From a bacterium (GTDB taxonomy: Bacteria; Patescibacteriota; Minisyncoccia; 1-14-0-10-42-19), in the NCBI GenBank assembly GCA_030690215.1, contig JAUYHD010000004.1, positions 31,090 through 95,089 on the forward strand: a stretch of 64,000 bases of DNA, read 5' to 3'. This document shows, piece after piece, positions 6,819 through 63,992 of this stretch. The notes beneath the pieces were generated by a model. The model did no database searches. It saw nothing but the letters and a program-made list of their open reading frames with translations, and was not told where the DNA came from. The position numbers and the translations under genes were made by a program. Every line of letters starts with the position of its first letter. Position 1 is the stretch's first letter.

Positions 6819-6848
6819 CAGTATAATCAAGTGAGTTTATTTGTCAAC
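6819..6848 (-). promoter_or_regulatory. Candidate sigma70-like promoter for rpoBC on the minus strand (TTGACA-16nt-TATACT)
   Basis: The reverse complement of 6819-6848 reads gTTGACAaataaactcacttgatTATACTgg. It sits about 120 nt upstream of the rpoB start. Confidence 0.4.
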
Positions 6849-7041
6849 CCCGTTAGAAATCTGGCCTGTGGATACAGAGAGTAAAGAAAATTTGATCTAT
6901 GTATTATGAAAATCCACCTTTGTGCGTACAAAAAAAATTTGAGCACAAATTTTTCTGTCCAAGACTTTCCGCCAGAGGCGGATCTGCCTCAGGCACGACT
7001 AACGAGGTCAAGACAAGCTGTGGATAATGCGCTATTTTTAT

Positions 7042-9904: not shown

Positions 9905-10060
9905 CGTCAACCCCGTAAGACAATATCGCATAATGCATTCTTATAAGTCATTATACAAAGTAGTCTATGAGGAAAAACAAGACAATCCAATAAAATTTGA
10001 GCCCCCAGCGGCGAACGCATAACTTATAATGCGATATTGCTCTACGGGGTCAATGATTCA
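9905..10060. repeat. MITE-like element: imperfect inverted repeats of about 28 bp ('accccgtaagacaatatcgcataatgc' / 'ttataatgcgatattgctctacggggt') flanking about 100 bp
   Basis: Inverted repeats seen directly. The termini share the 'ccccgtaaga' motif with the dispersed repeat family. Confidence 0.45.
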
Positions 10061-10073
10061 TGTATTAAAAACT

Positions 10074-10250
10074 GACGGCTACCTACTCTCCCCTTGCGAG
10101 TACCACCCGCCTTCTCCGCCAGCTGGCGGATTCGGCGAGGCAAAGTCAGCTCAATCGAGTTTCACTTCCGTGCCTGCCCCGTAGCTCCCGCTTCAGCGGG
10201 ATGGTTCGGGGTTCGGAATGTTACCGATTTGCCTGCGAGTAACATGAGCA
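10074..10250 (-). ncRNA. Degenerate 5S-like copy carrying two insertions of about 45 nt each (pseudo-5S or 5S-derived RNA)
   Basis: It shares the 27-nt block 'ctacctactctccccttgcgagtacca' and the 'tttcacttc...gttcggaatg' blocks with the adjacent 5S gene. The complementary terminal helix I cannot be formed. Confidence 0.4.
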
Positions 10251-10299
10251 GACGCAAATCGCAATCCCGTATTAAAATTTAAAAAATAAGTACTTAAGA

Positions 10300-10402
10300 C
10301 CGGCGACTACCTACTCTCCCCTTGCGAGTACCATCGGCACTACCGCGTTTTACTTCTTTGTTCGGAATGGAAAAAGGTAGTTCCACGGCGTTAAGTCACC
10401 GG
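10300..10402 (-). rRNA. rrf: 5S ribosomal RNA (short form)
   Basis: The reverse complement aligns along its length with E. coli 5S (…CTACTCTCGC…TACCATCGGCGCTACGGCGTTTCACTTC…GTTCGG…). The terminal helix is ccggtgac/gtcgccgg. It lies just downstream of the 23S gene. Confidence 0.75.
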
Positions 10403-10865
10403 ACTTAAATCCTTATTTATTTTTTTAAATTTTAATTGCGGGAGGAACGGGTGGTGCTCCGCCTTCATTAAAACTCCGGCGAGACAAGCACGACGACAAG
10501 CCACCAGATTACAGCACACGACTACACAACAACAGGTATTTACCCCGCCTTAATTTTGCTCTTTATTACTTCATTTCTTTATTAAAAAGAAAGAGCGTTA
10601 TATTGCCGGCAATGCGCTTCGTCCATACGGGGTGTGCTATCCGCACACGCGCATTGCAAAACAATACAAAGCAAAATTAAAGCGGGGTCTCAATTCCGCC
10701 ATGCCATTCTCTATTTCCTAAAGGAACGGCGGAATTGGATAACCATCACATATTTCAGCGGGATTGACCACTTAGTACAGCTCGGCTTAACTCCTCACAG
10801 AGCGTACACCTGCTGCCTATCAACCTCGTCATCTCCGAGGGGTCTTAATGATTCCTAATCTTGAG

Positions 10866-10903
<38 letters not shown>

Positions 10904-10992
10904 TCCCGACATAGCTACCCAGCGATGCTCTTGGCAGAACAGCTGGTACACCAGAGGTCAGTTCTCTTCGGTCCTCTCGTCACATTCTCCCC

Positions 10993-11805
10993 TATTTCTA
11001 GGAGTGCAGACTATATCTTCACCTTTCTTTAATAAAAAGTTAAGGTGTTGGCGTATTACAAACATAAGCCTGTTTCTTTTGAAAGAAACTTTCCGGCATT
11101 ATGAAAGTCCGCTCCGACATAAAGTCAGAGACAAGTCGTTACGGGGTCAGACCTAAAATTTTATGCAATTCGCTTCTTGTTTTTTTCTTTTTGGTAACGT
11201 AATTTTGACTTTGAATAACCAAAATCAGATCAACAAGTTTTGTCAATTGCCTTTTCGTTAGCTTTTGGAACTTTGTGTTGGATAACACTTCACACGCTTG
11301 TAAGAGCGCGCGTGTTTGAGGTTTTTTAAAACGAATATACGGCAACAAACTTTTAAGAATATTTCTTATCTGTTTATAACCATTTATTCGCAGCTCAGTC
11401 ATTCCATCATTTCTGTCAGAAATATAACCGATACCCAAGACTTCTTTTATCCAATATAAAGTCTTTTTATGCCTAGCATCTTGATAAAAACAAATTGTAG
11501 TCATAAAACGAATCCCTCGTTTGCTATCGCTTCGCTTTTTGAGCTGAAGCATAAGACTCCCATCTCCATCAAGAAAACCAGCAATATACGCGAACTTAAT
11601 TTTAGATCGACTTCCCACGATATTATCTTACTCTATTTCTGGTCCTCAAGCGAATAGTAATATCAAAGACCGTATGATATTACTTTTCATCGAACCGAGA
11701 AACATGAATGAAGATTCCACCGTTATTAGCCACTTTTTCATCACACATTTCTGCGTGAAGTAGCAAGGCCCCAAAAGGGCTTACTAGAAGAAACTCCTCT
11801 CAAGA
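10993..11805 (-). mobile_element. Putative group I intron in the 23S domain V/VI region carrying a LAGLIDADG homing endonuclease gene
   Basis: About 810 bp replace roughly 35 nt of conserved sequence between the exon blocks '...ggtcctctcgtcac' and 'gcagtagataggagaccaacctgtctcacg'. Confidence 0.65.
11139..11618 (-). CDS. LAGLIDADG homing endonuclease (single-motif, I-CreI-like size)
   Basis: A 159-aa ORF with the motif YIAGFLDGDGSLMLQ, lying inside the 23S insertion. Confidence 0.85.
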   Translation of the reverse strand: MGSRSKIKFAYIAGFLDGDGSLMLQLKKRSDSKRGIRFMTTICFYQDARHKKTLYWIKEVLGIGYISDRNDGMTELRINGYKQIRNILKSLLPYIRFKKPQTRALLQACEVLSNTKFQKLTKRQLTKLVDLILVIQSQNYVTKKKKTRSELHKILGLTP

Positions 11806-11835
11806 ATCAACGCCTGCAGTAGATAGGAGACCAAC

Positions 11836-12208
11836 CTGTCTCACGCATGTTTTGCTTCGTAAACCCGCTGGCCTGCGCAGAATATACGCAGAATCACGCA
11901 GACACGAAACATTCCCGCTATTACTAGCGGCATTGGACTATATCTTCATCCCACTTGTGCTGGGAGGCTAACATGTAGTCTCTACAGGGTCATAAGAAAA
12001 TATAAATGAATTTTTCTTAGACTTCCCTCGGTATTGTCCTTATGAAAGGATTTTACCGATATAAGTTAGCTTCTCGCTCAAAAATTACTCTTTGAGGCCG
12101 CCGTGATTGAGGTTGTTTCCTATCTTTATTTCATAGACGAAAAATATGTCGTTGGATTCAAACAGTCGATGAGCCAATCAGTAGTTCAAGATCGTAATGC
12201 GCGATTAG
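11836..12208 (-). mobile_element. Putative ORF-less intron in 23S between ...CTGTCTCACG and ACGGTCTGAACCCAGCTCGCG
   Basis: A 375-bp insertion splits the contiguous conserved sequence GAGACAGTTCGG.../...ACGTTCTAAACCCAGCTCGCG, which is uninterrupted in E. coli. Confidence 0.55.
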
Positions 12209-12241
12209 CGCATCAACGGTCTGAACCCAGCTCGCGTGCCA

Positions 12242-12320
<79 letters not shown>

Positions 12321-12917
12321 GCTTCGTCGATATGGACTCTTGGAAGCGACCAGCCTGTTATCCCCGGAGTAGCTTTTATCCGTTAATCTTCCGCGGCGTC
12401 TAGTGCCCACGGTCGGTTCACTATGTTCTGCTTTCGCATCTCTTTTTATACATGAAAGCATAAAAAGTTCCGAAATATTCGGAAGTTTGACATGTCCGTC
12501 TTACAGTTAAGCCAGCTTATGCCATTGCGCTATCGGCGCGATTTCCATCCGCACCTAGCTGACCTTGATAAACACCTCCGTTACTTTTTAGGAGGTAAGC
12601 GCCCCACTTAAACTGCCCACCAGATACTGTTCCCGTGCGTTTTTGCCGCAAAGGTTAGAGTCTAAAAATGAAAAGATGGGTATTTCACTGTTGGCTCCAT
12701 GCCGCCCAAGAGCAACACTTCAAAGCCTCCCCACTATGCTACGCATTACATTCTTAGAGCCAATATCAAGTTGCAGTAAAGCTTCCGGGGTCTTTTCGTC
12801 TAACTGCAGGTAACCGGCATCTTCACCGGTATTGTATTTTCACCGGGCTACTCCCCGAGACAGTCCCCCAGTCGTTACGCCTTTCGTGCACGTCGGAACT
12901 TACCCGACAAGGAAATA

Positions 12918-12953
<36 letters not shown>

Positions 12954-14299
12954 GACGAGGGCTTCGGTCGGTCAGCATCCCGCTAAAAGCGGGACACCAC
13001 CAACGTTAACCTTCTCGCATTGGTCAGGCGTCACCCTCTATACATCCTCTTACGAGTTCGCAGAGAGCTGTGTTTTTGTTAAACAGTCGCCAGGGGTACT
13101 TTCGCTGCGTCCCGCTTTCCACACGATAAAAACCGTATGGTTAACGGGAAACTCTTATTGCTAACTTACGAGTGCTTTTTTGCCGAGTTCCTTGGGGAGC
13201 ACTCACCCGTTCGCCTTAGTCTTCTCGACCTGCTCACCTGTGTCGGTTTGCGGTACGGTTTCCATATACTTAACCCTAGAAGTTTTTCTTGGAAGGCTCT
13301 TCAAAAGAATTTTCTTCCGAAACGAAAGAATTTCTGCATTGCGCGAGATTTGCCTTGCGGCCGCTTTCCGGATTTGCCGGGAAAGCATCTCTGTACAACA
13401 CAAACGCGAATCCAATAACGCGCTCTTTTTTATGTCCTCCGTCCCTCCATTGGAAATATACGGAAGTCACGGAATATTAACCGTGTGTCCATCAACTGCG
13501 CCTTTCGGCATCGCCTTAGGACCGACTCACCCTTGGCTGATCACCATTGCCAAGGAAACCTTGAGCTTTCGGCGTGCAGGGCTCTCACCTGCATTGCGGT
13601 TACTTGTGCCAACATTCTCGCTTCCCAACGCTCCACCACTTCTCACGAAGCAGCTTCACTGCATTAGGAATGTTCTCCTACCGCGTTATGCAAAAGCATA
13701 ACACCCTCACCTTCGGTACTCTGCTTGAGTCCCGATTATTTTCGGCGCAATATCTCTTGACGAGTGAGCTGTTACGCACTCTTTAAAGGATGGCTGCTTC
13801 TAAGCCAACCTCCTCGCTGTCTGAGAAATTTCACCACCTTGAAAACACTTAGCAGAGATTTAGGGACCTTAGATTGAGATCAGGGCTGTTTCCCTTTTGA
13901 CCGATGGAGCTTCGCCCCCATAGTCTAACTGCCCTTACAATACGTTCGGTATTCGGAGTTTGGTTGGAAAGCCGAGCTTTCGCCCTATGCATCCCATCCA
14001 GTAGCTCTACCCCCGAACGATAATAAAGACGCTAACCCAAAAGTTATTTCGGAGAAAACCAGCTATTCCCACGTTCGATTAGCTTTTCACTCCGACCCAC
14101 AGCTCATCCGATGACGTTGTACGATCAACCGGTTCGGACCTCCTTCCGCCTTTCGGCGAAATTCATCCTGGCCATGGGTAGCTCACGTGGCTTCGGGTCT
14201 TTTGCATGTTGCCTTTATTCTTCGCCAATTCACTCGCGTTAAAACGAGTGAATTGGAAAGAATGATGCGCGCTGTTAACACTCGGTTTCCCTTTGCCTC

Positions 14300-14860
14300 C
14301 CCCCGCTCTTTTGGCACTATTCCAGTAAACTATTTTGAATACGCTTCTTAAGATGCCCGATTACCGCTCCGTGATGTTTTAGTTTTTCTTCACGAAGCAA
14401 TGCATCTTTTTTACTAAGATACGATTCGTAATAAATAAGTTTGAATGGAGCGTAATGTTTTGTTGATCTATTTTCTCCTTGATTGTGTTCTTTCAATCTT
14501 CTCCGAAGATCATTCGTACTCCCCACATAGAAAAAATTTTTATTTTTACTTTTAAGAAAATAAACATAATACATAATCAATAATTATACCAACAAAATAA
14601 TAACGCCAAAAGAGCGGGGTTAGACGAGCAGCATGCAAAAACTCGTTGGCTCATTCTTCAATAGGCACCCGGTCACTCGTACCTCGCTCTCGCTCGGCAC
14701 TTCGTAATTTTCAATTTTTAATTTCTAATTTTTAAACATTTGAAAATTGGAACATTAAACATTGAATAAAAATTGAGAATTGAAAATTAAAAATTTTGTG
14801 CTGAACAAAAGTGAGGCACAAGCTCCCAGTCCTTGTAAGTATATGGTTTCAGGTACTATT
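14300..14860 (-). mobile_element. Intron-like insertion in the 23S 5' half carrying a GIY-YIG endonuclease gene plus an AT-rich low-complexity tail
   Basis: 23S-conserved sequence resumes on both sides (about 14290 and about 14870, CTCACGGTACTAGTTCACTATCGGTC). The insert contains the ORF 14317..14580 and 'aattgaaaatt' repeats. Confidence 0.5.
14317..14580 (-). CDS. GIY-YIG nuclease (catalytic domain only, 87 aa)
   Basis: Motifs YYVYFLKS...FYVGSTNDLRRRLKEHN, matching the GIY/YIG/Arg/Glu pattern. Confidence 0.85.
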   Translation of the reverse strand: MIMYYVYFLKSKNKNFFYVGSTNDLRRRLKEHNQGENRSTKHYAPFKLIYYESYLSKKDALLREEKLKHHGAVIGHLKKRIQNSLLE

Positions 14861-14880
14861 TCATCGCCCTCATCGGGCTG

Positions 14881-14920
<40 letters not shown>

Positions 14921-15299
14921 TTGAAGCGTATTTAGCCTTGGGAGCTAGTGCTCCCGGCTTCCCCCGAGGCATTCGTTCCTCGAGGTACTCAAGAGTACAT
15001 TCCGAGAGACAGAGATGATTTTCGTGTACGGGGCTATTACCCTCTTTGGCCCGCCTTTCCAGACGAGTTCTACTAACCAAATCTCTTCTTGTAAATCTCT
15101 CCTGAGAGTAAACTCTCAATGAATGTATCTTTCAACCCCCCTCGACTCGATGCTACGCACCTCGCTCGGGGTAAACCCATCTTTTAAAAAACGAAGATTG
15201 GGCTTGCCCTGAGTGAGATTCGCAGAATCGAATCGAAGGGTTTGGGCTCTTCCCGTTTCGCTCGCCGCTACTAAGGGAATGGACCACATCTCGCTTCGC

Positions 15300-15670
15300 T
15301 CGAGTGGAATTCCCAATTTTCAAGCACCAATTTCAAAACAAATCCCAATGACCAAAATCCAAAACAAGGGTTTTTGAAAATTGAAACATTAAAAATTGAT
15401 TGCCCGCCCAAAGGGCGAGGTCTCGCCTAAGGCGGAAAAATTAGAAATTAAAAATTGGAAATTCCGCGCCGAACAAAGTGAGAAGCAGCATTGTTTTCTT
15501 TTCCTCTAGGTACTGAGATGTTTCACTTCCCTAGGTGCGCTCCGCGCTCTGCACGGAAACCCAAATTTCCAAGCACCAACCCCCAAACAATGCAAAAATT
15601 CAAATGACCAAAACGGATTTGGAATTTGAAATTTAGAATTTGTTTGGAATTTGGATTTTGTAATTTAGGA
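15300..15670 (-). repeat. Two related AT-rich expansion inserts in the 23S 5' domain ('cc(a/c)aatttccaagcaccaa...caaatgaccaaaa' copies at about 15318 and about 15558, plus 'aattgaaa/aatttgga' low-complexity runs)
   Basis: Direct repeat and low-complexity sequence lying between conserved 23S blocks. Confidence 0.5.
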
Positions 15671-16106
15671 TTTCCGTGCAAAGCACGGTCTCCGTGGTTT
15701 ACACGGAGGGGTTTCCCCATTCGGACATCTCCGGATCAAAGGTTGCTAGTCACCTCCCCGAAGCTTATCGCAGACACGCCACGTCCTTCATCGCCACTTC
15801 AAGCCAAGGCATCCGCCATATACTCTTATTCCCGCTGAAATATACAATGATTATAAATGCTATAATCACCTGTTGTTTATATTCTATTGTAAATTTGCTC
15901 ACCTTTACTGCCGGCATCTGTTTAATAAAAAAATGATAAACAGGTGTCGGGAGTAAAAATATTGTGTACCCTCCTCCGCACTTCTCCGCTAAAGCTCCGA
16001 AGTGCTTCGGGCGGGTTATTTTTCGCAACTACGCTTCGCGTAGGCAAAAAATGAATAATCGCGCCGCAAGCAGTGCGATATCTCACGCTATGCTTGCAGC
16101 TTTGCG

Positions 16107-16311: not shown

Positions 16312-16695
16312 TCCGCTTCTTTTGAGCGGAGTTCATACAACCAAATACAGGCGTGATTACAAACTAGGACTCGTCGCCCCCGCTTTCTAAAAATGATATG
16401 TTGATAGTGTGTAACATCGTATTGTTTTCCTAGTATAGCAGGTCTGTTTTGGCTGTCAAACCCCGTTTGGCTAAATCGAAAGCTGTATCTACGTCTGACG
16501 GATACTATATCTGGTTAAGGAAACAATGGTCCGTTATGTGAGTCGTCGAAATTCGCTGGTAGATACAACAAGGAAGACGGTTCGATTTTGCCTAACGGGG
16601 TCAAATCTTTCAACTAAATCCAAAACAAGCCCGACTACCCACCATTGCACATGGGGCTTTCCGACAGGAAAACCCCATAGAACAATAGCGATTAG

Positions 16696-23822: not shown

Positions 23823-23954
23823 AGCTTTTCCCCCGTTAGGCTACATCGAAACATCGTACTTGTTTTATCAAAAACAATATTCCGATTATTGCCTTCACAT
23901 GTATGTTAACGATAATCCTTTATACTACCCCGTACGATGAAGATATAAAACATT

Positions 23955-23994
23955 CGATGTTGCCATACGGGGCATACCCCGTATGGCAACATCG
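23955..23994. repeat. Near-perfect 18-bp-arm palindrome 'cgatgttgccatacgggg cata ccccgtatggcaacatcg'. It is the core of dispersed repeat family B.
   Basis: Seen directly. Related copies are at 24100, 24460, 24765, 25775-26095, 41395-41475 and 41595, with short variants elsewhere. Confidence 0.8.
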
Positions 23995-24074
23995 AAAAAC
24001 GTCTTCCTTGCTGCATCTACTCGCATAATCTTAGAATTATACACAAAAAACCAATATTTCTTTGCTAATTTGTA

Positions 24075-24353
24075 TTATTCCGTAAGACGTAAAGGTTTTG
24101 CTTTCGATGTTGCCATACGGGGTTCCACAAGAAAGTCGGGTATTTCTATTATCTTATTGGGCTTGCGTACACCCCTGCGAAGGCGAATCTTTGAGGGTGA
24201 AATATTAAAATAAACTGCAAGCGCGTCTAGTACCGCTCTGTTTGCTTTGCCCCCTTCCGCTTTTTCTTTTACATACACATCAAAAGAATCATTTTTCTTT
24301 TGAATAATCGCGTCTTTCGGCGACCGGGTATGGGCTTTCACTTTTACAAGCAT
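24075..24353 (-). CDS. DUF167 (YggU) family protein
   Basis: MLVKVKAHTRSPKD...FDVYVKEKAEGGKANRAVLDALAVYFNISPSKIRL matches the YggU pattern. The C-terminus probably reads into a repeat copy. Confidence 0.55.
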   Translation of the reverse strand: MLVKVKAHTRSPKDAIIQKKNDSFDVYVKEKAEGGKANRAVLDALAVYFNISPSKIRLRRGVRKPNKIIEIPDFLVEPRMATSKAKPLRLTE

Positions 24354-24475
24354 ACCTAACCAAAAAATCGACTGCTCGCAAAAAGCACGATAAGCCCGAC
24401 AATGATGACCAGAGCAAATCTGCTAATATATGACCACAATGAACCTTTATTGTTACCTTGGGGAGGCATACCCCG

Positions 24476-24772
24476 TTAGGCTAAATCAAATGAAGAAGAC
24501 CAATACTCCCGCAGGCGATTCCTCAAAAATCTGCGTCCTGCAGTAGATTTGAGATAACGCTCACGCTGCATGGCGTCTTCTTGATTTGTACAAGCCTCAA
24601 GATAAATGATAATAAATGGTAGTCTCATTTTTGTTGAAAAGTTATACCCCCGTTTGTGCTCTTCTAATCGTTTTTTAATATTCTTTGTATATCCTACATA
24701 CATATTGCCGTCCTTTTTGCTCCGCAATACGTATGTCCAGAAGAGCACATTTGATTTTGCCATACGGGGCAT
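24476..24772 (-). CDS. GIY-YIG nuclease (catalytic domain only)
   Basis: WTYVLRSKKDGNMYVGYTKNIKKRLEEHKRG. Family-B repeat copies flank it on both sides. Confidence 0.8.
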   Translation of the reverse strand: MPRMAKSNVLFWTYVLRSKKDGNMYVGYTKNIKKRLEEHKRGYNFSTKMRLPFIIIYLEACTNQEDAMQRERYLKSTAGRRFLRNRLREYWSSSFDLA

Positions 24773-24805
24773 ATATCTATTATACTACGCGAACTCTTTT
24801 TATAT

Positions 24806-24830
24806 AAAAAATCCCGCTTTAAGCGGGGTT
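24806..24830. terminator. Bidirectional terminator hairpin 'cccgctttaagcgggg' with T-runs on both sides
   Basis: Seen directly between the GIY-YIG gene and the TPR gene. Confidence 0.55.
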
Positions 24831-24832
24831 TT

Positions 24833-25501
24833 TTATATGGCATCAAGCATTGACTGCAGAACCGCTGAAATCGTAGGGTGGTTCGTTATTGCTCCTTGCA
24901 ATAATTCACGCGCGCTTGCTTTATCTCCCAAAATATCTACATACAGCTCAACTGCCGCTGCGTAATATTGGGGATTTGTCGGCGCTTTCTCTATTGCCTT
25001 GAGTATATACTCCTCCCCTTTTTGGTTGTCGTGGAAGTGATATATATATAAATTGGAAAGATTATTGAATACACGAGCATCATCCGGCTGAATAAACGCA
25101 ACATAGCTCCAAATCTCCTCTGCTCCCTTGTAGTCTTCAATTAGTTTGCGGTACGTTCCTAGTTCCAACCAATGATCTACGAGCGCAGAATCGCTTTTTA
25201 GAGTGTCTATCAATTCCGCTATTTTTTGCTTTGCCTGCGTTGCAGATTCAGAATTCATCCCCTCGGGGATAACAACCGGCCGATCAAGATCAGGAATTGG
25301 AACCGAATCTATGCTATTTGAGACATCGGCGGGCACGACAACGGCATCTATGCCGTTGTCTTTGTTTTCGTTTTTACCATCTTCTGTAGAAGAGGGGCTG
25401 TTGGCATTGTATAGGAACATAACACCCCCAAACAGAAAAAGAACCAAAAAACCAATAATGTATATTTTGTATTTTTGCATACCCTTGTTAAAAATTTCCA
25501 A
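24833..25501 (-). CDS. Membrane-anchored TPR-repeat protein
   Basis: An N-terminal TM helix. The C-terminal half carries TPR-like repeats (…AEEIWSYVAFIQPDDARVFNNLSNLYIY…EEYILKAIEKAPTNPQYYAAAVELY…). Confidence 0.55.
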   Translation of the reverse strand: MEIFNKGMQKYKIYIIGFLVLFLFGGVMFLYNANSPSSTEDGKNENKDNGIDAVVVPADVSNSIDSVPIPDLDRPVVIPEGMNSESATQAKQKIAELIDTLKSDSALVDHWLELGTYRKLIEDYKGAEEIWSYVAFIQPDDARVFNNLSNLYIYHFHDNQKGEEYILKAIEKAPTNPQYYAAAVELYVDILGDKASARELLQGAITNHPTISAVLQSMLDAI

Positions 25502-25774
25502 TTTTAAATTTCCAATTTTTATTCAATGACATAATTCCAAAATTTTTAAATAGTGTAAGAAATTGAATCATTAAACATTGATTATTCTTCGATTTTGCTC
25601 AGAATCTTAAAATCTTGAGCTTGCCGAAAGAAAAATTCAAAATTAAGAATTAAAAATTAAACACTACTGATACTATTTCGTATTATCCCGAAATACATAA
25701 AGATTTTGCTTTTCTGCCGGAGGCAGATCTGCTCGCCTCGTTTTCGCCTTGGCGAAGCGGGCCTTCGGCATGAC

Positions 25775-26095
25775 GATGTTGCCATACGGGGCATACCCCG
25801 TTAGGCTACATCGAAAAACGTCTTCCTCGCAAAACCGCCGAATATATTTCGATGTTTACCTTTTATTGTACTTTTACTAATAATACTTTGTGTTATTCCC
25901 GTAAGACGCAAAGGTTTTGCTTTCGATGTTGCCATACGGGGCATACCCCGTTAGGCTACATCGAAAAACGTCTTCCTCGCAAAACCGCCGAATATATTTC
26001 GATGTTTACCTTTTATTGTACTTTTACTAATAATACTTTGTGTTATTCCCGTAAGACGTAAAGGTTTTGCTTTCGATGTTGCCATACGGGGCATA
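25775..26095. repeat. Tandem array: a 150-bp unit present 2.1 times (one mismatch between units). Each unit contains a family-B palindromic core.
   Basis: Unit starts are at 25775, 25925 and 26075. The repeated translation (FTFYCTFTNNTLCYSRKT x2) is visible in the ORF track. Confidence 0.85.
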
Positions 26096-26277
26096 TCTAC
26101 AATTTGTATCACAGGTTCTTTTTTATTTCAACCCCGACCTTGAGAATCCTTAATGCTCTCAGAGAACTGCACTATAAGGATTCTCAAGAGCGGGGCAATG
26201 CAAAAGCCCCGTGTTTCCACGGGGCTTTTGGAGCCGTCTCTTCGCTCACGAGGAGCAAAGGACCACAAGAGGCTCTA

Positions 26278-34156: not shown

Positions 34157-37100
34157 TTGCGTAGTGTTCTCCGCATATTACAATCTAATTTTATCAATTA
34201 CATGCGTACTATTACTAAAAATATGAGATATGTTATGTTTTTTGCAGGTTTTATGGGAATAGCTGTGTTTTTGGCGTTTTCGCCATCAACGAGCCATGCG
34301 ATCAGCTTTCCTTCATGCTCTCTTTCCCCCCAGCAAGATAGGATTATTGTTCAGTTCAACCCTATCACAAAACTCTGGGCAAATGAGCAATACAAAATGG
34401 GGGGGCCGTTTTCGGCATCAATTCCCGCGGGAGAATACAAAATAACAGCAATGTCCTTTGACGACCACTTGGAACGGTCACATCAAAACCAGCCGAATGA
34501 GCAGTGGTTTATGATTCTTAAGAACAACAACAGCACTGTTGCTCAAACGGGTTCTACGAATGATTTGCCGGACAACGCGGATGTGCGCGTAGACGTTGTA
34601 AATATCTCACTCGTTATACCGCAATCGGTTACATCAATCATCACGTTTCATACGATGTACCCCAACAGCAATCCAAACAGTATTTACCCAATATGCGCCG
34701 CATTTGATAGGATACACCAGCCGGAACCCCCTACCGTAGATATTAAAGCAAACGGAAGTGATGGACCGATTACTATCGGATTCAACTCAAGCGCAACAGT
34801 AAGCTGGACATCGTCTAATGCATCAAGCTGTACTGCGTCAGGCGCATGGTCAGGATCAAAAAGCCTTTCAGGTTCTCAATCAACCGGAAATCTTACCGGA
34901 TCAAAAACATACACCATAACATGTACGGGATCCGACGGCAGTGACTCTGATAGCGTAACAATAAACGTACAACCACCCGCATCTCCAACAGTAGACATTA
35001 AAGCAAACGGAAGTGATGGCCCTGTAACAATCGGATTTAATTCCAGCTCAAATCTTACCTGGACCTCTTCTGACGCATCAAGCTGTACCGCGTCAGGAGC
35101 ATGGTCAGGATCAAAAAGCCTTTCAGGTTCTCAATCAACCGGAAATCTTACCGGGTCAAAAACATACGTTATAACATGTACGGGACAGGGTGGAAGCGAT
35201 TCGGATAGCGTGACGGTGACTGTGCAGTCGCAAAATCTTCCGACAGTAGACATCACCGCAACCCCATCATCAATCATACAGGGGGATACGTCATCGTTGG
35301 GATGGACATCCTCAAACGCAGATTCATGTTTCGCAACAAACGGATGGAGCGGAACAAAATCGCTTTCAGGCAATCAAGCAGTTTCGCCGCAAAACACCGC
35401 AACCTACACAATCACCTGTTCTAATGGTGCAGGCCAGGCATCAGACAGCGTAACAATTACCGTAAGCGTACCTCAATCGCTTCCGACAGTTGCTATTTCC
35501 GCAAACCCAAATCAGGTAGCGCAGGGAAACCCAAGCGTCCTTACATGGACATCTGCAAATGCAGACACATGCACCGCATCAGGTGCATCCGACTGGAATG
35601 GTTCGCGCAATATATTCGGAAATCAGGTAGTCTCTCTTTTTAATACAACAACCTACACGATTACCTGCTCCAACAGCACAGGACAAGCATCAGACAGCGT
35701 AACTGTTTCGGTCCAATCAATCACCCCCTCTGCCGACATTAAAGCGAATGGGAGCGACACATCTATCACTATTTCGCCCAACAGTTCAGCGACTATCAGC
35801 TGGACATCAAGCAATGCCGCAAGCTGTTCTATTTCACCTACCGGCTGGTTTGGGACATCGGGATCGCAATCAACGAGTAATCTCACCAACTCAATTACAT
35901 ACACAATAAATTGTAGCGGAGTGACAGGAGGCACGGCATCAGACAGTGTAACTGTGAACATCCAAGACAACCTCCCAACGGTGGATATTTCCGCGAATCC
36001 GGGATTTATAACCCAAGGAAATTCAACGGTGCTCACCTGGACTTCTTCAAACGCAGATTCATGTTTTGCAACAAACGGATGGAGCGGAACAAAATCGCTT
36101 TCCGGGAACCAATCAACATTCCTCACGCAGACAACCACATATACAATCACTTGTTACAATAACGCGGGGCAAGCAACAGACAGCGTAACTGTTTCGGTAC
36201 AAGCAATAACGCCTACGGTAGATATTACCGCCGCCCCTATAACAATAAACCGCGGCGAAAGCACTGTGCTTGTATGGAGCTCCGCAAACGCGGACTCATG
36301 TTTTGCAACAAACGGATGGAGCGGTTCTAAATCGCGCTCAGGATCAGAAGTAACGGCACCGCAATTTGATACCACATACACAGTCACCTGTGCTAAAGGA
36401 GGACAAAGCGTTTCGGATTCAGTTACGGTTTTTGTAAACGCGAACCAACCACCCATTACAGGAACATTCAATGTTGCCTGTTCCGTAAGCAGCCCGACAA
36501 TTACCCTAGGCGACAGCGTTTCTTTTGTCGCAGGGTATGCCGGAGGTGTTGCCCCCGTTACATTTCAGTGGAGCGGAGATGTCACCGGATTTACGCAAAG
36601 CCGTGTCACAAACTTTAGCACAACAGGAACAAAATTTGCGACAGTAACGGTAACCGACGCGCAGGGACGAAACAATTCCGCAAACTGTTCTGTACAGGTA
36701 GTCCCCGCGACGGTGGTAAGTGCTGCGCCTCCGCAACCTCCGACAGTTATCACAGCGACAACGAACACGCAACCGACGTCTTGTTGCTGTTGCAATGGAG
36801 TGCCAACGCAAATCCAATATGACTCAAATGGAAATCCAATTACCGTTGCGTCAGATACTCAAGACCGGTCAATGCTCGCTTCATTATTCACTACGCAAAG
36901 CGGAAATCCATCAACGCTCTTATACATGCTCTTGTTCCTATTGATTGTTCTCGCGATTATCGCCATGGTTCGCTATCTCTTCGTAGATAAGCCGGTAAGA
37001 CGGTACGAATATGGATATCGTCAAGAACAATATCCATACGAACGAAAGGGGTATGGATACCAAAACGGGAACTCCAACGGATATGCAAACGGATATGCCA

Positions 37101-37219
37101 GCGACGACGAACGATTCGAACCAAAAAAGCGCCAGCCCCAGCCATACAACGAAAACGAACGGTTTGAGCCGAAACGAAACGGATACCCGCGTCCTACATA
37201 TACCGAACAGTCCCGCTAA
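34157..37219 (+). CDS. Giant cell-surface protein: signal peptide, about nine tandem Ig-like repeats of about 100 aa, and a C-terminal TM anchor with a Tyr/Gly/Asn-rich cytoplasmic tail
   Basis: A 1020-aa ORF. The unit PTVDIKANGSDGPITIGFNSSATVSWTSSNASSCTASGAWSGSKSLSGSQSTGNLTGSKTYTITCTG..SDSDSVT is repeated with variation (DNA repeats at about 34740-36470). There is a CCCC motif just before the TM helix LLYMLLFLLIVLAIIAMV. Confidence 0.8.
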   Translation: MRSVLRILQSNFINYMRTITKNMRYVMFFAGFMGIAVFLAFSPSTSHAISFPSCSLSPQQDRIIVQFNPITKLWANEQYKMGGPFSASIPAGEYKITAMSFDDHLERSHQNQPNEQWFMILKNNNSTVAQTGSTNDLPDNADVRVDVVNISLVIPQSVTSIITFHTMYPNSNPNSIYPICAAFDRIHQPEPPTVDIKANGSDGPITIGFNSSATVSWTSSNASSCTASGAWSGSKSLSGSQSTGNLTGSKTYTITCTGSDGSDSDSVTINVQPPASPTVDIKANGSDGPVTIGFNSSSNLTWTSSDASSCTASGAWSGSKSLSGSQSTGNLTGSKTYVITCTGQGGSDSDSVTVTVQSQNLPTVDITATPSSIIQGDTSSLGWTSSNADSCFATNGWSGTKSLSGNQAVSPQNTATYTITCSNGAGQASDSVTITVSVPQSLPTVAISANPNQVAQGNPSVLTWTSANADTCTASGASDWNGSRNIFGNQVVSLFNTTTYTITCSNSTGQASDSVTVSVQSITPSADIKANGSDTSITISPNSSATISWTSSNAASCSISPTGWFGTSGSQSTSNLTNSITYTINCSGVTGGTASDSVTVNIQDNLPTVDISANPGFITQGNSTVLTWTSSNADSCFATNGWSGTKSLSGNQSTFLTQTTTYTITCYNNAGQATDSVTVSVQAITPTVDITAAPITINRGESTVLVWSSANADSCFATNGWSGSKSRSGSEVTAPQFDTTYTVTCAKGGQSVSDSVTVFVNANQPPITGTFNVACSVSSPTITLGDSVSFVAGYAGGVAPVTFQWSGDVTGFTQSRVTNFSTTGTKFATVTVTDAQGRNNSANCSVQVVPATVVSAAPPQPPTVITATTNTQPTSCCCCNGVPTQIQYDSNGNPITVASDTQDRSMLASLFTTQSGNPSTLLYMLLFLLIVLAIIAMVRYLFVDKPVRRYEYGYRQEQYPYERKGYGYQNGNSNGYANGYASDDERFEPKKRQPQPYNENERFEPKRNGYPRPTYTEQSR

Positions 37220-39694: not shown

Positions 39695-40474
39695 CTATTG
39701 GCGCAAGCCGTATCCTTTCCGAAAAAGAATATAGACCGCAAAACTCAAAAAAATAATGAGAGAAAAAATAATACCAAAACCCAAAAGAGCGCTTGCTTCA
39801 TGCACGCCAATCATGGAGTAACGGACTCCATCTATAAAATAGAAAAAGGGGTTGAGGCGTACAACGGTTTGCAGAAATGGCGGGAGCATGGTGATAGAAT
39901 TAAAAACCCCGCCCAAAAAGCTTAATGGCGTAATCACAAAAACCGTCCAGATGTTAAGGTGCTCAAAATTATCGGCCCATACCGATACCAAAAGCCCCAG
40001 CAGAGAAAAGACAACGGAAACAGAAAGAAGATAAAAAATAAATAACCCGAAATGCGCTATATTCGCCGCGTTAAAAAACACGGCAATCAAAAAAACGCCA
40101 AGCCCCACCAAAACGCCCCGCGCAATGCCGCTCACCACACATCCGATAATCATTTCAACGTGGGAAAAGGGGGTGATAAGAATTTCTTCAATACTTCGGG
40201 TAAACCGCTGGATATAGAGCGAGAATGATGTCTGGGAAAACGCCGACGAAATAACGCTCATCATAAGAATGCCGGGTAATACAAAATCTATGTAGGGCGC
40301 ACCTGCAATCGTATCTATTCTGCCCCCGACAATAAAACCAAAAACAAAAATATATAACAGCGCTGAAATCCACGGAGCAAGAAGCGCTTGGACTGCGACG
40401 CGAAAAAAGCGCTCAACTTCGCGCCACACGAGCATATACATGCCGACCCAATTAACGCGCATGCGGTGTTTCAT
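39695..40474 (-). CDS. ABC-2 type transporter permease
   Basis: A 259-aa ORF with six TM segments, overlapping the upstream ATPase gene by 23 nt. Confidence 0.8.
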   Translation of the reverse strand: MKHRMRVNWVGMYMLVWREVERFFRVAVQALLAPWISALLYIFVFGFIVGGRIDTIAGAPYIDFVLPGILMMSVISSAFSQTSFSLYIQRFTRSIEEILITPFSHVEMIIGCVVSGIARGVLVGLGVFLIAVFFNAANIAHFGLFIFYLLSVSVVFSLLGLLVSVWADNFEHLNIWTVFVITPLSFLGGVFNSITMLPPFLQTVVRLNPFFYFIDGVRYSMIGVHEASALLGFGIIFSLIIFLSFAVYILFRKGYGLRQ

Positions 40475-41198
40475 CGTGATGATTGGTTAATTCAAGATAT
40501 TTTTCTTCCAATGTTTTCCCGCCATCAAGAAAATCTTTCTTGTCCCCTATCGCGATTATTTTTCCTCCATGAATAATTCCGATGCGGCCGCATAATTTTT
40601 CTACCTCCTCCAAATAATGCGAGGTGAGCAAAATAGTTTTTCCGGCTTCATTTAAATCTTTTAAATACCGCCATATCTCCCGGCGGAGCTCTACATCAAC
40701 GCCCGCCGTAGGTTCATCTAAAATAAGCAATTTTGGATCATGCACCAAAGCGCGGCCCATCATAACACGGCGCTTAAGCCCGCCTGAAAGCGTTCGGAAC
40801 TGTTTTTCGGCATGTTCTTGCAATTCAAATGTATGAATGATGTGGGCGACTCTTTTTTTGCGTTCATCGGCGCGAAGCCCATAATACCCCGCCATATATT
40901 CAAAAATGTGGCGGACTTTCATAAATGGATCAACTGTGAATTCCTGCGGCGAAAGGCCTATCTGCATGCGCGCTTCCCGATACTGCGTCCGTACATCATA
41001 TCCGAATACTGAAATCTCCCCCTCTTCAAAACGCGCAATGCCCGTGACGCACTGAATGGTGGTTGTTTTGCCCGCGCCATTCGGCCCTAAAAAGCCGAAA
41101 AATTCGCCTTCTTGTATAGACAAAGAAACATCTTCCACAGCGCGAATATGCTTATAGTGTTTCTTTAAATTGCGAATACTAAGCGCGTCTTGTTTCAT
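40452..41198 (-). CDS. ABC transporter ATP-binding protein
   Basis: Walker A GPNGAGKTT, signature LSGGLKRR, Walker B LLILDEPT. Confidence 0.9.
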   Translation of the reverse strand: MKQDALSIRNLKKHYKHIRAVEDVSLSIQEGEFFGFLGPNGAGKTTTIQCVTGIARFEEGEISVFGYDVRTQYREARMQIGLSPQEFTVDPFMKVRHIFEYMAGYYGLRADERKKRVAHIIHTFELQEHAEKQFRTLSGGLKRRVMMGRALVHDPKLLILDEPTAGVDVELRREIWRYLKDLNEAGKTILLTSHYLEEVEKLCGRIGIIHGGKIIAIGDKKDFLDGGKTLEEKYLELTNHHDETPHAR

Positions 41199-41204
41199 AC
41201 CCCG

Positions 41205-41620
41205 TTAAAAATTTCCAATTTTAAATTTCAAATTTTTCCGCCAGAGGCGGATCTGCCTCAGGCAGATAATCAATGCTGTAATAAATTAATTCCTAAAAAA
41301 TAAGGTCGTTTTATTCATTAAAAAATTAAAAATTGAATAAAAATTAAAAATTAATAATTAAAAATTAAACACTACTGATACTATTTCGTATTACCCCGTA
41401 AGACGTAAAGGTTTTGCTTTTCCGCCGAAGACGGATCTGCCTCAGGCACGACTAACGGGGCATACCCCGTTAGGCACTATCGCATGGTAAGCCATGCGTT
41501 CGCCGTTTATTATTCGTATCATAGGATTCGTTTTTCATTTATATATATATGGGGTGTATACCAATGACTTACAAGAACGCATTATGCGAGAGTGCCATAC
41601 GGGGCATATCCAAATATACT
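41205..41620. repeat. Cluster of dispersed-repeat copies (two family-A hairpins 'ccgccagaggcggatctgcctcaggca', family-B 'cccgtaagacgtaaaggttttgcttt...ccatacgggg', and AT-rich 'aattaaaaatt' runs)
   Basis: The sequence is identical to segments at 6955-6998, 25560-25830 and 24078-24125. Confidence 0.7.
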
Positions 41621-41677
41621 ATCAAAAAAAGAACAGCCCGTAGAGGGCTGTTCTTATATGTAAAAATATCCGCGTAA

Positions 41678-41899
41678 TTACATTGATGCTGACCCTCCCT
41701 TCCCTGCGCAATGCAAGCAATCTTTCTTATGGCTGATAACAAGATACACTGCCGAGATACCAACAAGAATATAAATAATTTTAGAGATCATGACATCCGA
41801 TCCTCCAAAAATAGTTCCGATTTCCCAGTTAAAAATGGCAAACACAAGCCAATTAAGTCCCCCCACAATAACAAGCAAAAATGCTATTTTGTGCAACAT
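41678..41899 (-). CDS. DUF378 family small membrane protein
   Basis: IAFLLVIVGGLNWLVFAIFNWEIGTIFGG...IIYILVGISAVY matches the DUF378 pattern. Confidence 0.6.
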   Translation of the reverse strand: MLHKIAFLLVIVGGLNWLVFAIFNWEIGTIFGGSDVMISKIIYILVGISAVYLVISHKKDCLHCAGKGGSASM

Positions 41900-44374: not shown

Positions 44375-44611
44375 TTACAAGATACTTGTCATGATCCTTC
44401 GTTTGAGTTGAGCGAGCGCATTACCATCTTTTTTTAACGAGTGCTCTCGATGTCTCGCATCTTCCTCTGAAAAATACGCTTCATAATATCGCAACTCAAA
44501 CGGAGCATGTGATTTTGTTGAACGCACCTGCCCCTTGTTGTGTTCTTCAAACCTTCGTCTCAAGTCGCTTGTTGAACCCACATACAGATTCTTATCCATT
44601 TTGCCCCGCAC
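44375..44611 (-). CDS. GIY-YIG nuclease (catalytic domain only). The likely start is the ATG at 44597-44599.
   Basis: NLYVGSTSDLRRRFEEHNKG. The 5' end abuts repeat family C, copy 2. Confidence 0.8.
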   Translation of the reverse strand: MRGKMDKNLYVGSTSDLRRRFEEHNKGQVRSTKSHAPFELRYYEAYFSEEDARHREHSLKKDGNALAQLKRRIMTSIL

Positions 44612-44889
44612 CAGAAAGCCCCGAGCGTAAGCTCAAGGGATGAACCCCGTTAGAAGTCTTGGGGGCAGAAAAATTTGTACTCAAATTTTTCTTTTACGCA
44701 CAAAGATGGATTTTCTCATAACACATAAACCAACCCCCCCCCCTCTCTCTCTTTTTTTTGTCCTTTGTGAGGATATGCCAGACTTCTAGCGGGGTGAATG
44801 GTATAAAACGGGCTTTCGGTGCGGGATTTCGCGCAACGAAAGCTCGAAGGGGTTGATACCCCGAGCGTAAGCTTCGGGGAGCGCTTCAC
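44599..44889. repeat. Repeat family C, copy 2, carrying a nested insertion of about 160 bp (about 44648-44808). The insertion contains a 'ccccgttagaagtc' family-B-like motif and a C/CT homopolymer tract.
   Basis: Aligned by eye to 31877..32012. Confidence 0.5.
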
Positions 44890-44955
44890 TTTTCAAGATA
44901 TAGACATAGAACATACAAACATCATAGCCGACTTGAGACGCATAAGAAAACAGGT

Positions 44956-63719: not shown

Positions 63720-63992
63720 TTAGCGATGTTTGTATTTTACTTTCTCAAAACAATCTTCGAGTTGGACCTTCAACTCTTCTCTGCCCTTACCTCCCTTTAG
63801 AAACTTTTCCCGACGCTTAGCGTCGATAGAACTTATATAAGTTTCGTAGTATAAAAGTTTAAGCGGCCTTCGATATTTTGTTGCAATAACGTAACCCAAA
63901 TTATGTTTTTTAATCCTCGCTTTTAAATCGGGGGTGGAACCGATATAAAGCTGGCCGTCCTTTTCGCTCAAAAGTATATAGACATAATACAT
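63720..63992 (-). CDS. GIY-YIG nuclease (catalytic domain only)
   Basis: MYYVYILLSEKDGQLYIGSTPDLKARIKKHN. Confidence 0.8.
   Translation of the reverse strand: MYYVYILLSEKDGQLYIGSTPDLKARIKKHNLGYVIATKYRRPLKLLYYETYISSIDAKRREKFLKGGKGREELKVQLEDCFEKVKYKHR

Follow-up and report, generated by a model that had tools for sequence, protein, structure and literature searches.

What are the palindromic repeats that recur through a 64,000-nucleotide stretch of a Patescibacteria genome, and why do they stand at both ends of a small GIY-YIG nuclease gene? The stretch (contig JAUYHD010000004.1, positions 31,090 to 95,089 of the forward strand) is referred to here as the window, with position 1 as its first letter. 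An initial annotation of the window had described a dispersed palindromic family, either mobile or structural, that might also supply terminators or nuclease target sites. [quoted passage not shown]

The answer starts from the one full-length copy in the window and its two flanks, which are arranged as follows (loci from other genomes are given L numbers).

24471 to 24769, minus strand: full-length element, 299 bp, with 5' arm CCCCGTATGGCAAAATCAAATG, GIY-YIG open reading frame (ORF) at 24476-24772 (98 aa), and 3' arm CATTTGATTTAGCCTAACGGGG; inverted ends 19/22.
24770 to 24773, minus strand: left TATG flank (CATA on the plus strand), whose ATG is the start codon of the GIY-YIG ORF; the same TATG is present in 9/9 GIY-bearing elements.
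24467 to 24470, minus strand: right TATG flank, whose ATG is the start codon of a small membrane ORF of the host (24356-24469); this start is shared by the L036 and L037 orthologs.

Read on the minus strand, the two kinds of arm are asymmetric. The first reads ATG CCC CGT ATG GCA A(A/C)A TC(A/G) AA, which is the start codon and codons 2-8 of the 98-aa ORF, and the second reads TTCGATGTAGCC TAA CGGGG T ATG, which holds its final codons and stop. As the arms are both termini of the GIY-YIG ORF, the 299-bp unit is therefore bounded by terminal inverted repeats. The initial annotation had placed repeat copies on either side of the gene; arms are indeed found at both sides, but they do more than flank it, overlapping the coding sequence at its two ends. 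Full-length forms measure 299-315 bp, with ORFs of 85-102 aa. A conserved tip, CCCCGT...ACGGGG, opens their arms of about 20-24 nt, and translation of the arms gives the N- and C-terminal tails of the nuclease. In RNA folding, the GIY element closes by a terminal stem (z=-7.4). The protein of the window copy is MDP2676133.1, and the host small membrane ORF that follows the cassette is 37 aa long and unannotated-looking. Three related genomes conserve, upstream of the DUF167 gene, an ORF of 34-37 aa that has a single hydrophobic helix (..SLWSYISRFALVIIVGLIVLFASSRFFG) and probably encodes a real small membrane protein; it lies at 24356-24469 on the minus strand of the window, 192-296 in L036, and 30-137 in L037.

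The remaining copies were counted and classified against this full-length unit. The core 24-mer, the arm 20-mer, and a 13-mer occur 4, 11, and 16 times in the window, compared with 0.00, 0.00, and 1.06 expected from dinucleotide-preserving shuffles; the claim of more than ten related copies, where chance predicts none, is thereby borne out. A scan for tip-to-tip inverted pairs, combined with a reading of other sites, gives 12 elements that occupy 2,178 bp (3.4% of the window) at 7 loci, so that the earlier statement that copies sit in almost every larger intergenic gap was an overstatement. The 12 units comprise one GIY-bearing element, four main-family miniatures (E1-E4), two composites (F1 and F2), and five miniatures of other subfamilies (A, B, C, D, and D2). 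Subfamilies differ in their inner arms, the tip CCCCG(T/C)...(A/G)CGGGG is common to all, and 17-21 of 22 arm positions in the window match as terminal inverted repeats. Most of the sites first listed for the family (24100, 24460, 24765, 41395-41475, 41595, 6843, 9905, 16465, 23835, and 44648) are true element ends, but the site at 10640 is not; it falls within a different inverted-repeat unit described below. Further copies occur outside the window in loci of L005, L007, and L008. The miniature and composite copies in the window are the following.

23977 to 24122, minus strand: E3 miniature, 146 bp, joined in frame at its 5' end to the 3' end of DUF167 (gene at 24075-24353); the orthologous junction lacks E3 in L036 and L037.
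23831 to 23972, minus strand: E4 miniature, 142 bp, in tandem with E3 with TATG between; about 10-20 nt upstream of the start of nth (endonuclease III).
23953 to 23996, no strand: the palindrome of the initial annotation, in which a TATG spacer separates the 3' arm of E3 from the 5' arm of E4; terminator-like on the minus strand.
25796 to 25941, minus strand: E1 miniature, 146 bp, forming a 150-bp tandem unit with TATG; 94% identical to an L008 copy at another locus.
25946 to 26091, minus strand: E2 miniature, 146 bp, 99% identical to E1.
25482 to 25791, minus strand: F1 composite, about 310 bp, comprising 5' arm, GC-rich nested insert, AT-rich body, and 3' tip, the last of these decayed; the GTATG at its end is the start of a tetratricopeptide repeat (TPR) protein gene (25480).
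41200 to 41460, minus strand: F2 composite, 261 bp, ending AACGGGG|TATG at the start of an ATP-binding cassette (ABC) transporter ATPase gene (41198); the orthologous L008 site carries a clean 146-bp copy.
41465 to 41604, minus strand: C miniature, 140 bp, of the subfamily with arms ..GGCACTCTCGCAT..; TATG/TATG flanks; L008 instead has a small membrane-protein gene starting at the same TATG.
9911 to 10049, plus strand: A miniature, 139 bp, of the same subfamily as C; TCAA/TCAA flanks; downstream of the 5S rRNA gene.
16461 to 16600, plus strand: B miniature, 140 bp; TCAA(A) flanks; upstream of the 23S rRNA gene.
6848 to 7007, plus strand: D miniature, 160 bp, with arms CCCCGTTAGAAATCTGG..; TCAA/TCAA flanks; contains a nested 27-nt GC-rich repeat.
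44645 to 44794, minus strand: D2 miniature, 150 bp; TTCA/TTCA flanks; inserted within another GIY-YIG gene, now a pseudogene (about 44378-44914).

The structure of these copies accounts for the conspicuous palindromes, which are junctions where the 3' arm of one copy meets the next copy's 5' arm. The near-perfect palindrome reported near 23955-23994 is real and was measured at 23953-23996, with 20-nt arms that are 100% complementary and a 4-nt loop. Likewise, the 150-bp tandem array reported at 25775-26095 was recovered by Tandem Repeats Finder at 25774-26095, with a period of 150 bp, 2.1 copies, and 99% matches, and its unit resolves into a 146-bp element (two arms around about 100 bp of unrelated sequence) and a 4-bp TATG spacer. 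The composite F1 is 79% identical to F2. In the short copies (139-161 bp), the cassette arms are kept, and the interiors are non-coding and unrelated to the nuclease ORF. Folds close with a terminal stem, in line with the check by RNA fold prediction that had been proposed, and E1 gives similar z scores as RNA (-4.95) and as DNA (-5.1). Two other interpretations of the miniatures were considered and rejected. A 47-aa ORF in the 150-bp unit has no Pfam match and is not conserved by the L009 miniature, which speaks against a real gene; derivation of the miniatures from the GIY gene by internal deletion was discarded for lack of interior similarity beyond the arms.

Two smaller repeats were observed beside or inside the copies. 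A 27-nt GC-rich repeat, CCGCCAGAGGCGGATCTGCCTCAGGCA, occurs at 6969-6995, 41238-41264, and 41422-41448 (3 occurrences with at most 3 mismatches versus 0 expected), with related sequence at 25700-25745. Every occurrence is nested in other repeat units, and it may represent a separate, very small insertion resembling repetitive extragenic palindromic (REP) sequences. A 64-bp hairpin at 26132-26195 (CCCCGACCTTGAGAATCCTTA...), with 21-22-nt arms, a CCCCG tip, and CAA/CAA flanks, lies directly downstream of the terminator of a gene for a 1,227-aa surface protein and may be an even smaller relative of the family. A search of the repeats against Rfam gave no match at gathering threshold or E<=1 and returned only sub-threshold, hairpin-like matches; a promoter scan (13 sites versus 6.7±3.0 expected) was uninformative.

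When the copies are placed into the context of their flanks and of related genomes, their mobility becomes apparent. The search for target-site duplications that had been suggested for the family finds 4-bp repeats (TATG, TCAA, or TTCA) around 8 of the 12 window copies: TATG at the GIY element, E1, E2, C, and F2, TCAA at A and D, and TTCA at D2. B is flanked by TCAA(A), and E3 and E4 together by GGAA/GAAA. Empty sites, the second check proposed, are present in L036 and L037, whose endonuclease III is 80-81% identical to that of the window and in which the order small ORF, DUF167, nth, and downstream genes is kept. E3 and E4 are absent from both, and the DUF167 stop in L037 lies 2 nt before nth; the small ORF of L037 starts gTATGgac, with no GIY element upstream. 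Removal of the GIY element and one TATG from the window leaves a sequence colinear with L037 across the junction, and the same is true when E3+TATG+E4 and one GAA are removed. The latter deletion also restores a sensible DUF167 stop (..VEKL*), whereas the DUF167 frame of the window as it stands reads into E3 and ends ..VEPRMATSKAKPLRLTE*. At L036, a D-type miniature is found instead, 9 nt upstream of the small ORF.

A similar comparison can be made with L008, which is syntenic with the window over 40350-41207 (90.7% identity) and 41604-41745 (80.7%). There, one clean 146-bp copy abuts the ABC-ATPase start codon, accompanied by the small membrane-protein gene, in the places taken by F2 and C in the window. 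With E1/E2, which sit 15 kb off in the window, the L008 copy shares 94% identity. D2, in turn, splits another GIY-YIG gene after about codon 10. At the protein level, the 90%-identity cluster of the GIY protein contains three proteins of the source metagenome-assembled genome (MAG), MDP2676065.1, MDP2676133.1, and MDP2676758.1, which are 93-95% identical and lie on three contigs (97, 21, and 84 kb). Three further homologs, P0045 (62 contigs), P0019 (31), and P0054 (11), each represent one locus sampled many times and so give no sign of recent transposition beyond the contigs with P0019 and P0054, which repeatedly break at element edges. Overall, it is well supported that the family consists of mobile units with inverted ends, miniatures, and 4-bp flanking repeats. 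The MITE-like mobile half of the first description therefore agrees with the inverted ends, flanking repeats, multiple copies, and empty sites in relatives; the REP-like structural half does not fit, as the units are 140-300 bp long, no gene for a REP-associated tyrosine transposase (RAYT) is found among the ORFs scanned, and flanking duplications are present.

The cassette is widespread in Patescibacteria and sits on host start codons. We compared nine independent GIY-bearing elements, namely, the window copy and those of L009, L010, L011, L012, L022, L023, L029, and L031. All nine read TATG|tip...tip|(T)ATG even though their arm sequences differ, and they share one plan: TATG, a tip and 5' arm translated in frame, the GIY-YIG ORF, a 3' arm with the stop, a tip, and (T)ATG. 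In the eight fetched loci, the annotated next co-oriented gene begins 1-2 nt past the tip. These host genes are a 167-aa ORF in L009 (after a tandem of GIY element and miniature), a proS-like synthetase gene in L010, lexA in L011, DUF72 in L012, an unknown ORF in L022, murG in L023, ligA in L029, and cysS in L031, and their N-termini look native, as in MKIVLSGGGTGG (MurG), MANLFIGTSGW (DUF72), and MLKLFNSLSRK (CysS). The arrays of the window likewise end on three gene starts, those of the small membrane ORF, the TPR-protein gene, and the ABC ATPase gene. GIY-bearing copies are found only at T|ATG of a host start codon and in host-gene orientation; miniatures are also found at TCAA/TTCA and in either orientation. 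The tandem in L009 provides a full-length partner having the same ends as a miniature. No miniatures were found within 15-20 kb of the GIY elements in L010, L022, L029, and L031, and the miniature burst is specific to the organism of the window and its close relatives.

Homologs of the protein are numerous. A single-sequence search found 14, and of 8,000 candidates scored in a profile search, more than 6,000 (90%-identity clusters) reached E<=1e-10, mostly of about 100 aa; the few with a named source come from Patescibacteria or Candidatus Nealsonbacteria. Typical termini are MP(R/S)NTTS at the N-terminal end and FG(x)GS at the C-terminal end. With clustering at 50%, the 13,364 GIY-YIG representatives at E<=1e-3 include 5 of the close clade at E<=1e-30. 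At the DNA level, an arm 20-mer scan of 185,579 species-representative genomes gave three chance matches in unrelated MAGs and no element, so that either the exact family is lineage-restricted or the source genome is outside that set. No contig was retrieved by exact look-up of either the GIY protein from the window or P0001, its 93% homolog.

The relation between the two arms was analyzed in an alignment of 17 constructs (9 GIY elements and 8 miniatures). Standard pairs fill 84% of cells, compared with 70% in shuffles (0/500 reach 84%) and 34-53% in controls with slid partners, and 16 of 21 arm pairs change on both sides. Compensatory variants extend to the tip, with CCCAGT/ACTGGG in L023 and L031 and CCCGGT/ACCGGG in L029; one L011 pair is kept only as G.U. 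As the arms are coding, pairing leaves a footprint in the protein termini: codon 8 is the reverse complement of the antepenultimate codon, and this rule is obeyed at the protein level in 65 of the 66 homologs with both termini. Where residue 8 is S/R/G, the antepenultimate residue is T/S/A (60/60); N goes with I/L (4/4) and H with V (1/1), and there is one exception. Pairing alone would look the same for a DNA structure, an RNA stem, or two identical sites of protein binding. The arms, however, vary freely while the 60-70% identical, one-domain protein hardly changes, which favours recognition of structure and conserved tip. The nuclease thus probably recognises a paired-arm or branched structure together with the tip rather than a long sequence.

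Features of the nuclease are in keeping with this. The 98-aa ORF encodes a single GIY-YIG domain (PF01541, E=2.5e-17, residues 11-80), and across 126 sequences its catalytic-type residues Y14, Y25, R35, H39, and E59 show little or no variation. In the PDB, only the UPF0213 proteins BH0048 (1zg2, E=2.1e-6) and EF2693 (1ywl, E=2.8e-4) match by sequence. An AlphaFold model (mean predicted local distance difference test score, pLDDT, 84.9) shows one compact domain, with low confidence in the arm-encoded tails (residues 1-10 and 91-98); neither the Pfam span nor the model leaves a separate DNA-binding domain in the protein. With Foldseek, BH0048 ranks first, followed by Slx1 nuclease domains (query TM-score, TMq, 0.55-0.64), with UvrC and I-TevI lower in the ranking. 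Slx1 acts on branched DNA as a structure-specific nuclease. The likeness to Slx1 fits paired ends as the substrate of the nuclease, without proving it.

It can be hypothesized how such a unit would spread and be expressed. Insertion leaves a 4-bp direct repeat. The unit proper, from tip to tip, has no initiation codon ahead of the arm, and as its ORF is open from the flanking ATG, the nuclease would be translatable from the host's own initiation context. The upstream ATG copy and this context would then head the nuclease ORF or, alternatively, initiation would occur at an internal ATG/GTG 9-10 codons further. In L010, AAAGGA lies 1 nt upstream of the flanking ATG, and in the window, L029, and L031, TATAAT lies 7-10 nt upstream of it, which suggests leaderless starts. 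The downstream ATG copy would still start the host gene; as the host ATG lies 10-22 nt past the nuclease stop, a spacing that suits termination-reinitiation, translation would probably be coupled. Only insertions at TATG starts would in this manner be both expressed and harmless, which would explain why GIY-bearing copies are always there and miniatures are elsewhere too. Repeated hits on one flanking TATG would build tandem arrays, and the array junctions would form the palindromes.

Within this scheme, the GIY-YIG nuclease would be the mobilising enzyme of the element. With lower confidence, we propose that it cuts the tip/TATG boundaries of the paired-arm structure, with joining by host functions or repair or by cohesive 4-nt ends. 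The initial annotation had considered the repeats as possible nuclease target sites; that the ends are the own substrate of the nuclease would be a stronger form of this idea and is plausible. More tentatively, the elements could constitute a previously unrecognised superfamily of prokaryotic transposable elements, the sole protein of which is a Slx1-like GIY-YIG nuclease of about 95 aa acting on its own paired ends, and which would be the smallest known autonomous mobile element (about 300 bp). Having no start codon of its own, it would persist by landing on host T|ATG, where it would use the initiation signals of the host and leave the host gene a duplicated ATG.

Several observations weigh against a nuclease-driven mobile element. 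We know of no GIY-YIG nuclease that catalyses transposition or strand transfer, and the link between nuclease and mobility is purely associative. The internal ATG/GTG at codon 9-10 may be the true start and is used by some gene callers (P0005 and P0007), which, if real, weakens the idea of a borrowed start codon. Some copies have no clean 4-bp repeat (E3/E4 at the composite level only, B with 5 bp, and L008 with 3 bp), and the constant TATG could reflect a site-specific mechanism or one TATG that is part of the element and not a true duplication. The GIY element is single in each other 15-20-kb locus, and three are at the same locus across many samples, so that most copies look stable rather than actively hopping. 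The three paralogs of the source MAG could, in principle, be strain variants binned together.

The short copies could be ordinary MITEs moved in trans by a conventional transposase, such as one of the DDE type, with the GIY-YIG ORF a passenger or a homing endonuclease gene that invaded one MITE lineage. DDE elements typically have inverted ends and target duplications of 4 bp, strand transfer is not known for GIY-YIG enzymes, which are hydrolytic nucleases, and a weak Transposase_mut fragment lies about 1 kb from the L029 GIY element. However, a scan of the 30 largest window ORFs found no transposase and no Y1/HUH (RAYT-type) match. The GIY-YIG gene is the sole ORF between the arms in nine independent genomes, and no transposase-bearing, full-length partner with these ends was seen. 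The arms, moreover, lie within the ORF and evolve together with it across more than 60 homologs, which would be odd for a passenger. We therefore consider this explanation unlikely.

About equally unlikely as a full account is that the arms act mainly at the RNA level, either as a stem cut by RNase III, as in 23S rRNA intervening sequences (IVSs), or by bringing an upstream stop and the host AUG together for coupling, with spread by rare recombination or homing. The strong terminal stems in RNA folds are consistent with such a role, as are the G.U pair of L011 and the upstream host genes of L009 and L012, which run into the 5' arm and stop at the TAA of CCCCGTAA within it. The same direction is indicated by a different GIY-YIG gene that has an inverted repeat as its boundary and sits in the helix-25 loop of 23S rRNA, the classic IVS site. 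An RNA role would leave unexplained the 4-bp flanking repeats, the position of A, B, and D in non-transcribed or antisense orientation, the insertion of D2 in a coding region, and the multicopy bursts, and folding as DNA is equally favourable. It is compatible with a nuclease-mobilised element and not exclusive of it. In the same sense, the proposed supply of terminators may stand as a side-effect, given the terminator-like score of the junction palindrome, but it is not the main story.

It is considerably less probable that the GIY-YIG gene is a free-standing homing endonuclease gene that cuts empty TATG/start-codon sites and is copied by double-strand-break repair, with the miniatures as decayed copies. 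The insertions do lie between genes and disturb them minimally, as is the case for free-standing genes of this kind in phages, GIY-YIG is a classic homing endonuclease fold, and a single stable copy per locus is seen in many genomes. The protein, at 98 aa, nevertheless lacks a DNA-binding domain, and the occupation of unrelated loci in different genomes, with several in one genome, cannot result from allelic homing. The interiors of the miniatures, unrelated to the ORF, exclude simple decay products, and 4-bp flanking repeats would not be expected. Finally, it is highly improbable that the repeats merely resemble each other and are structural or regulatory palindromes that do not move (REP-like units or terminators): the terminator-like hairpin score of the junction palindrome and the intergenic position of copies would suit it, but it is already contradicted by the empty-site alignments with relatives and further opposed by the flanking duplications, the ORF embedded in the repeat, the copy inside a coding region, and the 94% identity of copies at non-homologous loci in different organisms.

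Comparison with known systems further defines a mobile GIY-YIG element with miniatures. The miniatures are shorter than about 500 bp, lack coding capacity, have terminal inverted repeats and target-site duplications, are multicopy, and vary in presence or absence between relatives, which are the attributes by which MITEs are described. Bacterial MITEs (Correia/NEMIS of Neisseria, RUP, ERIC, and Nezha) similarly measure 100-300 bp, end in terminal inverted repeats, have short duplications of the target, lie between genes in many copies, and can form long RNA hairpins and affect the expression of neighbouring genes; the known ones derive, however, from insertion sequence (IS) elements with DDE or other classical transposases, whereas the partner here is a minimal GIY-YIG unit of about 300 bp on host start codons. 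REP/REPIN-RAYT systems also combine a small nuclease gene with flanking dispersed palindromic units and a recognition that is probably structural (hairpins), but RAYT is an HUH/Y1 enzyme and REPs are 20-40 nt with no target duplication, in contrast to the GIY-YIG gene, 140-300-bp units, 4-bp repeats, and absence of RAYT from the scanned ORFs found here. IS200/IS605 elements are likewise very small, have ends recognised as DNA hairpins, and insert beside a specific tetranucleotide; unlike the cassette, with its GIY-YIG ORF, true terminal inverted repeats, and 4-bp repeats, they have an HUH transposase of about 130-150 aa, subterminal hairpins, no duplication, and a length of at least 600 bp.

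Other comparisons concern the nuclease. Free-standing GIY-YIG homing endonuclease genes (T4 Seg and the I-TevI family) have the same catalytic fold and, as selfish genes, lodge between genes of the host and disrupt little, but they have long DNA-binding domains (>200 aa), no inverted ends or flanking repeats, and one allelic site, whereas the 98-aa single domain is nearer to Slx1. UPF0213 and prokaryotic Slx1-like minimal GIY-YIG proteins (BH0048, EF2693, and E. coli YhbQ) correspond in single-domain size and fold and give the best sequence and structure matches, yet reports of them include neither an inverted-repeat cassette nor placement at start codons. A 2006 survey of the GIY-YIG superfamily described this UPF0213/Slx1-like minimal branch as ancestral and vertically inherited, with housekeeping or unknown function (PMC1564403). 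IVSs of 23S rRNA are also insertions closed by a long inverted-repeat stem, some with a small ORF, but they are defined by rRNA location and RNase III excision, whereas the cassette family occupies protein-gene starts and intergenic DNA and leaves flanking repeats. In a partial library, we could not find this cassette or its start-codon placement described, nor any bacterial GIY-YIG element that has inverted ends or MITE-like derivatives; such a negative is not proof of novelty.

The surroundings of the family in the window were also inspected. The window is a chromosomal segment of Patescibacteria or candidate phyla radiation (CPR) type, with rpoB, ftsW, L10, aminoacyl-tRNA synthetase fragments, and type IV pilus ATPases. 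Its endonuclease III is 100% identical to MDP2676131.1, and the nearest named relative, at 69%, belongs to a Candidatus Niyogibacteria MAG. Three GIY-YIG genes are present in addition to that of the cassette. The second, of a different clade (ORF 14317-14580), lies inside the 23S rRNA gene in a unit at 14301-14619 on the minus strand, a 312-nt insertion in a hairpin loop at positions 653-659 of the large-subunit rRNA model (helix 25), the classic IVS site of 23S rRNA. The unit is closed by the inverted repeat CCCCGCTCTTTTGGC/GCCAAAAGAGCGGGG and has no flanking direct repeat, and thus has both the location and the closing stem of an IVS; a further 62-nt insertion lies directly downstream. The third (about 44378-44914, minus strand, MFYVYILKSE...) is the pseudogene split by D2, and its interruption of about 270 bp after about codon 10 holds D2 and two copies of GAGCTTACGCTCGGGG, so that the insertions are nested. 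The fourth (63720-63992, minus strand, 90 aa, MYYVYIL..) has neither an N-terminal MPR tail nor a visible inverted repeat on its 3' side, and its 5' flank runs off the window. Not every small GIY-YIG gene in the window is a cassette.

Additional insertions are found around the rRNA genes. Between the 23S rRNA 3' end and the 5S rRNA lies the 145-bp unit at 10543-10687 that includes the site at 10640, with inverted ends 19/22 (CCCCGCCTTAATTTTGC...), no flanking repeat, and a tip style like that of the helix-25 unit. The 23S rRNA gene (about 10700-15839, minus strand) is split; a group I intron at 11914-12119 (Rfam, 67.6 bits) that carries a LAGLIDADG ORF is followed by that LAGLIDADG_1 ORF at 11139-11618 (159 aa), and typical 23S 3'-terminal sequence resumes near 10870-10892, past the Rfam-aligned region. 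About 31 nt at 10077-10108, identical to the 3' part of the 5S rRNA gene at 10298-10403 (ggctacctactctccccttgcgagtaccacc), recur about 200 bp downstream of the real 5S, and the adjoining 10107-10137 matches L007 (93.5% over 31 nt). Elsewhere, a 255-bp tandem repeat at 34736-35211 (1.9 copies, 84% matches) lies inside a 1,020-aa ORF (34157-37219) and presumably encodes a repeated protein domain.

These observations bear on how small GIY-YIG proteins are understood. If the nuclease does act on the ends of its own mobile cassette, thousands of Patescibacteria annotations as 'GIY-YIG nuclease family protein' or 'excinuclease ABC subunit C' would be copies of the element, and the small CPR GIY-YIG protein family would gain a concrete, testable role. 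It would also account for the GIY-YIG ORFs in non-intron rRNA insertions of CPR bacteria, reported as unexplained and 'outside the context of homing' (PMC11270868). For those working with these genomes, the effect of the cassettes is that annotated starts of genes are displaced, host proteins (here DUF167) receive false tails at the C-terminus, and assemblies break. Should the nuclease mobilise the element, GIY-YIG would join DDE, HUH, serine, and tyrosine enzymes as a class of transposition enzyme, and a new lower size limit would be set for autonomous elements. Precise insertion at a start codon with duplication of the ATG would be an unusual way for a selfish gene to be expressed while the streamlined operons of its host remain unharmed.

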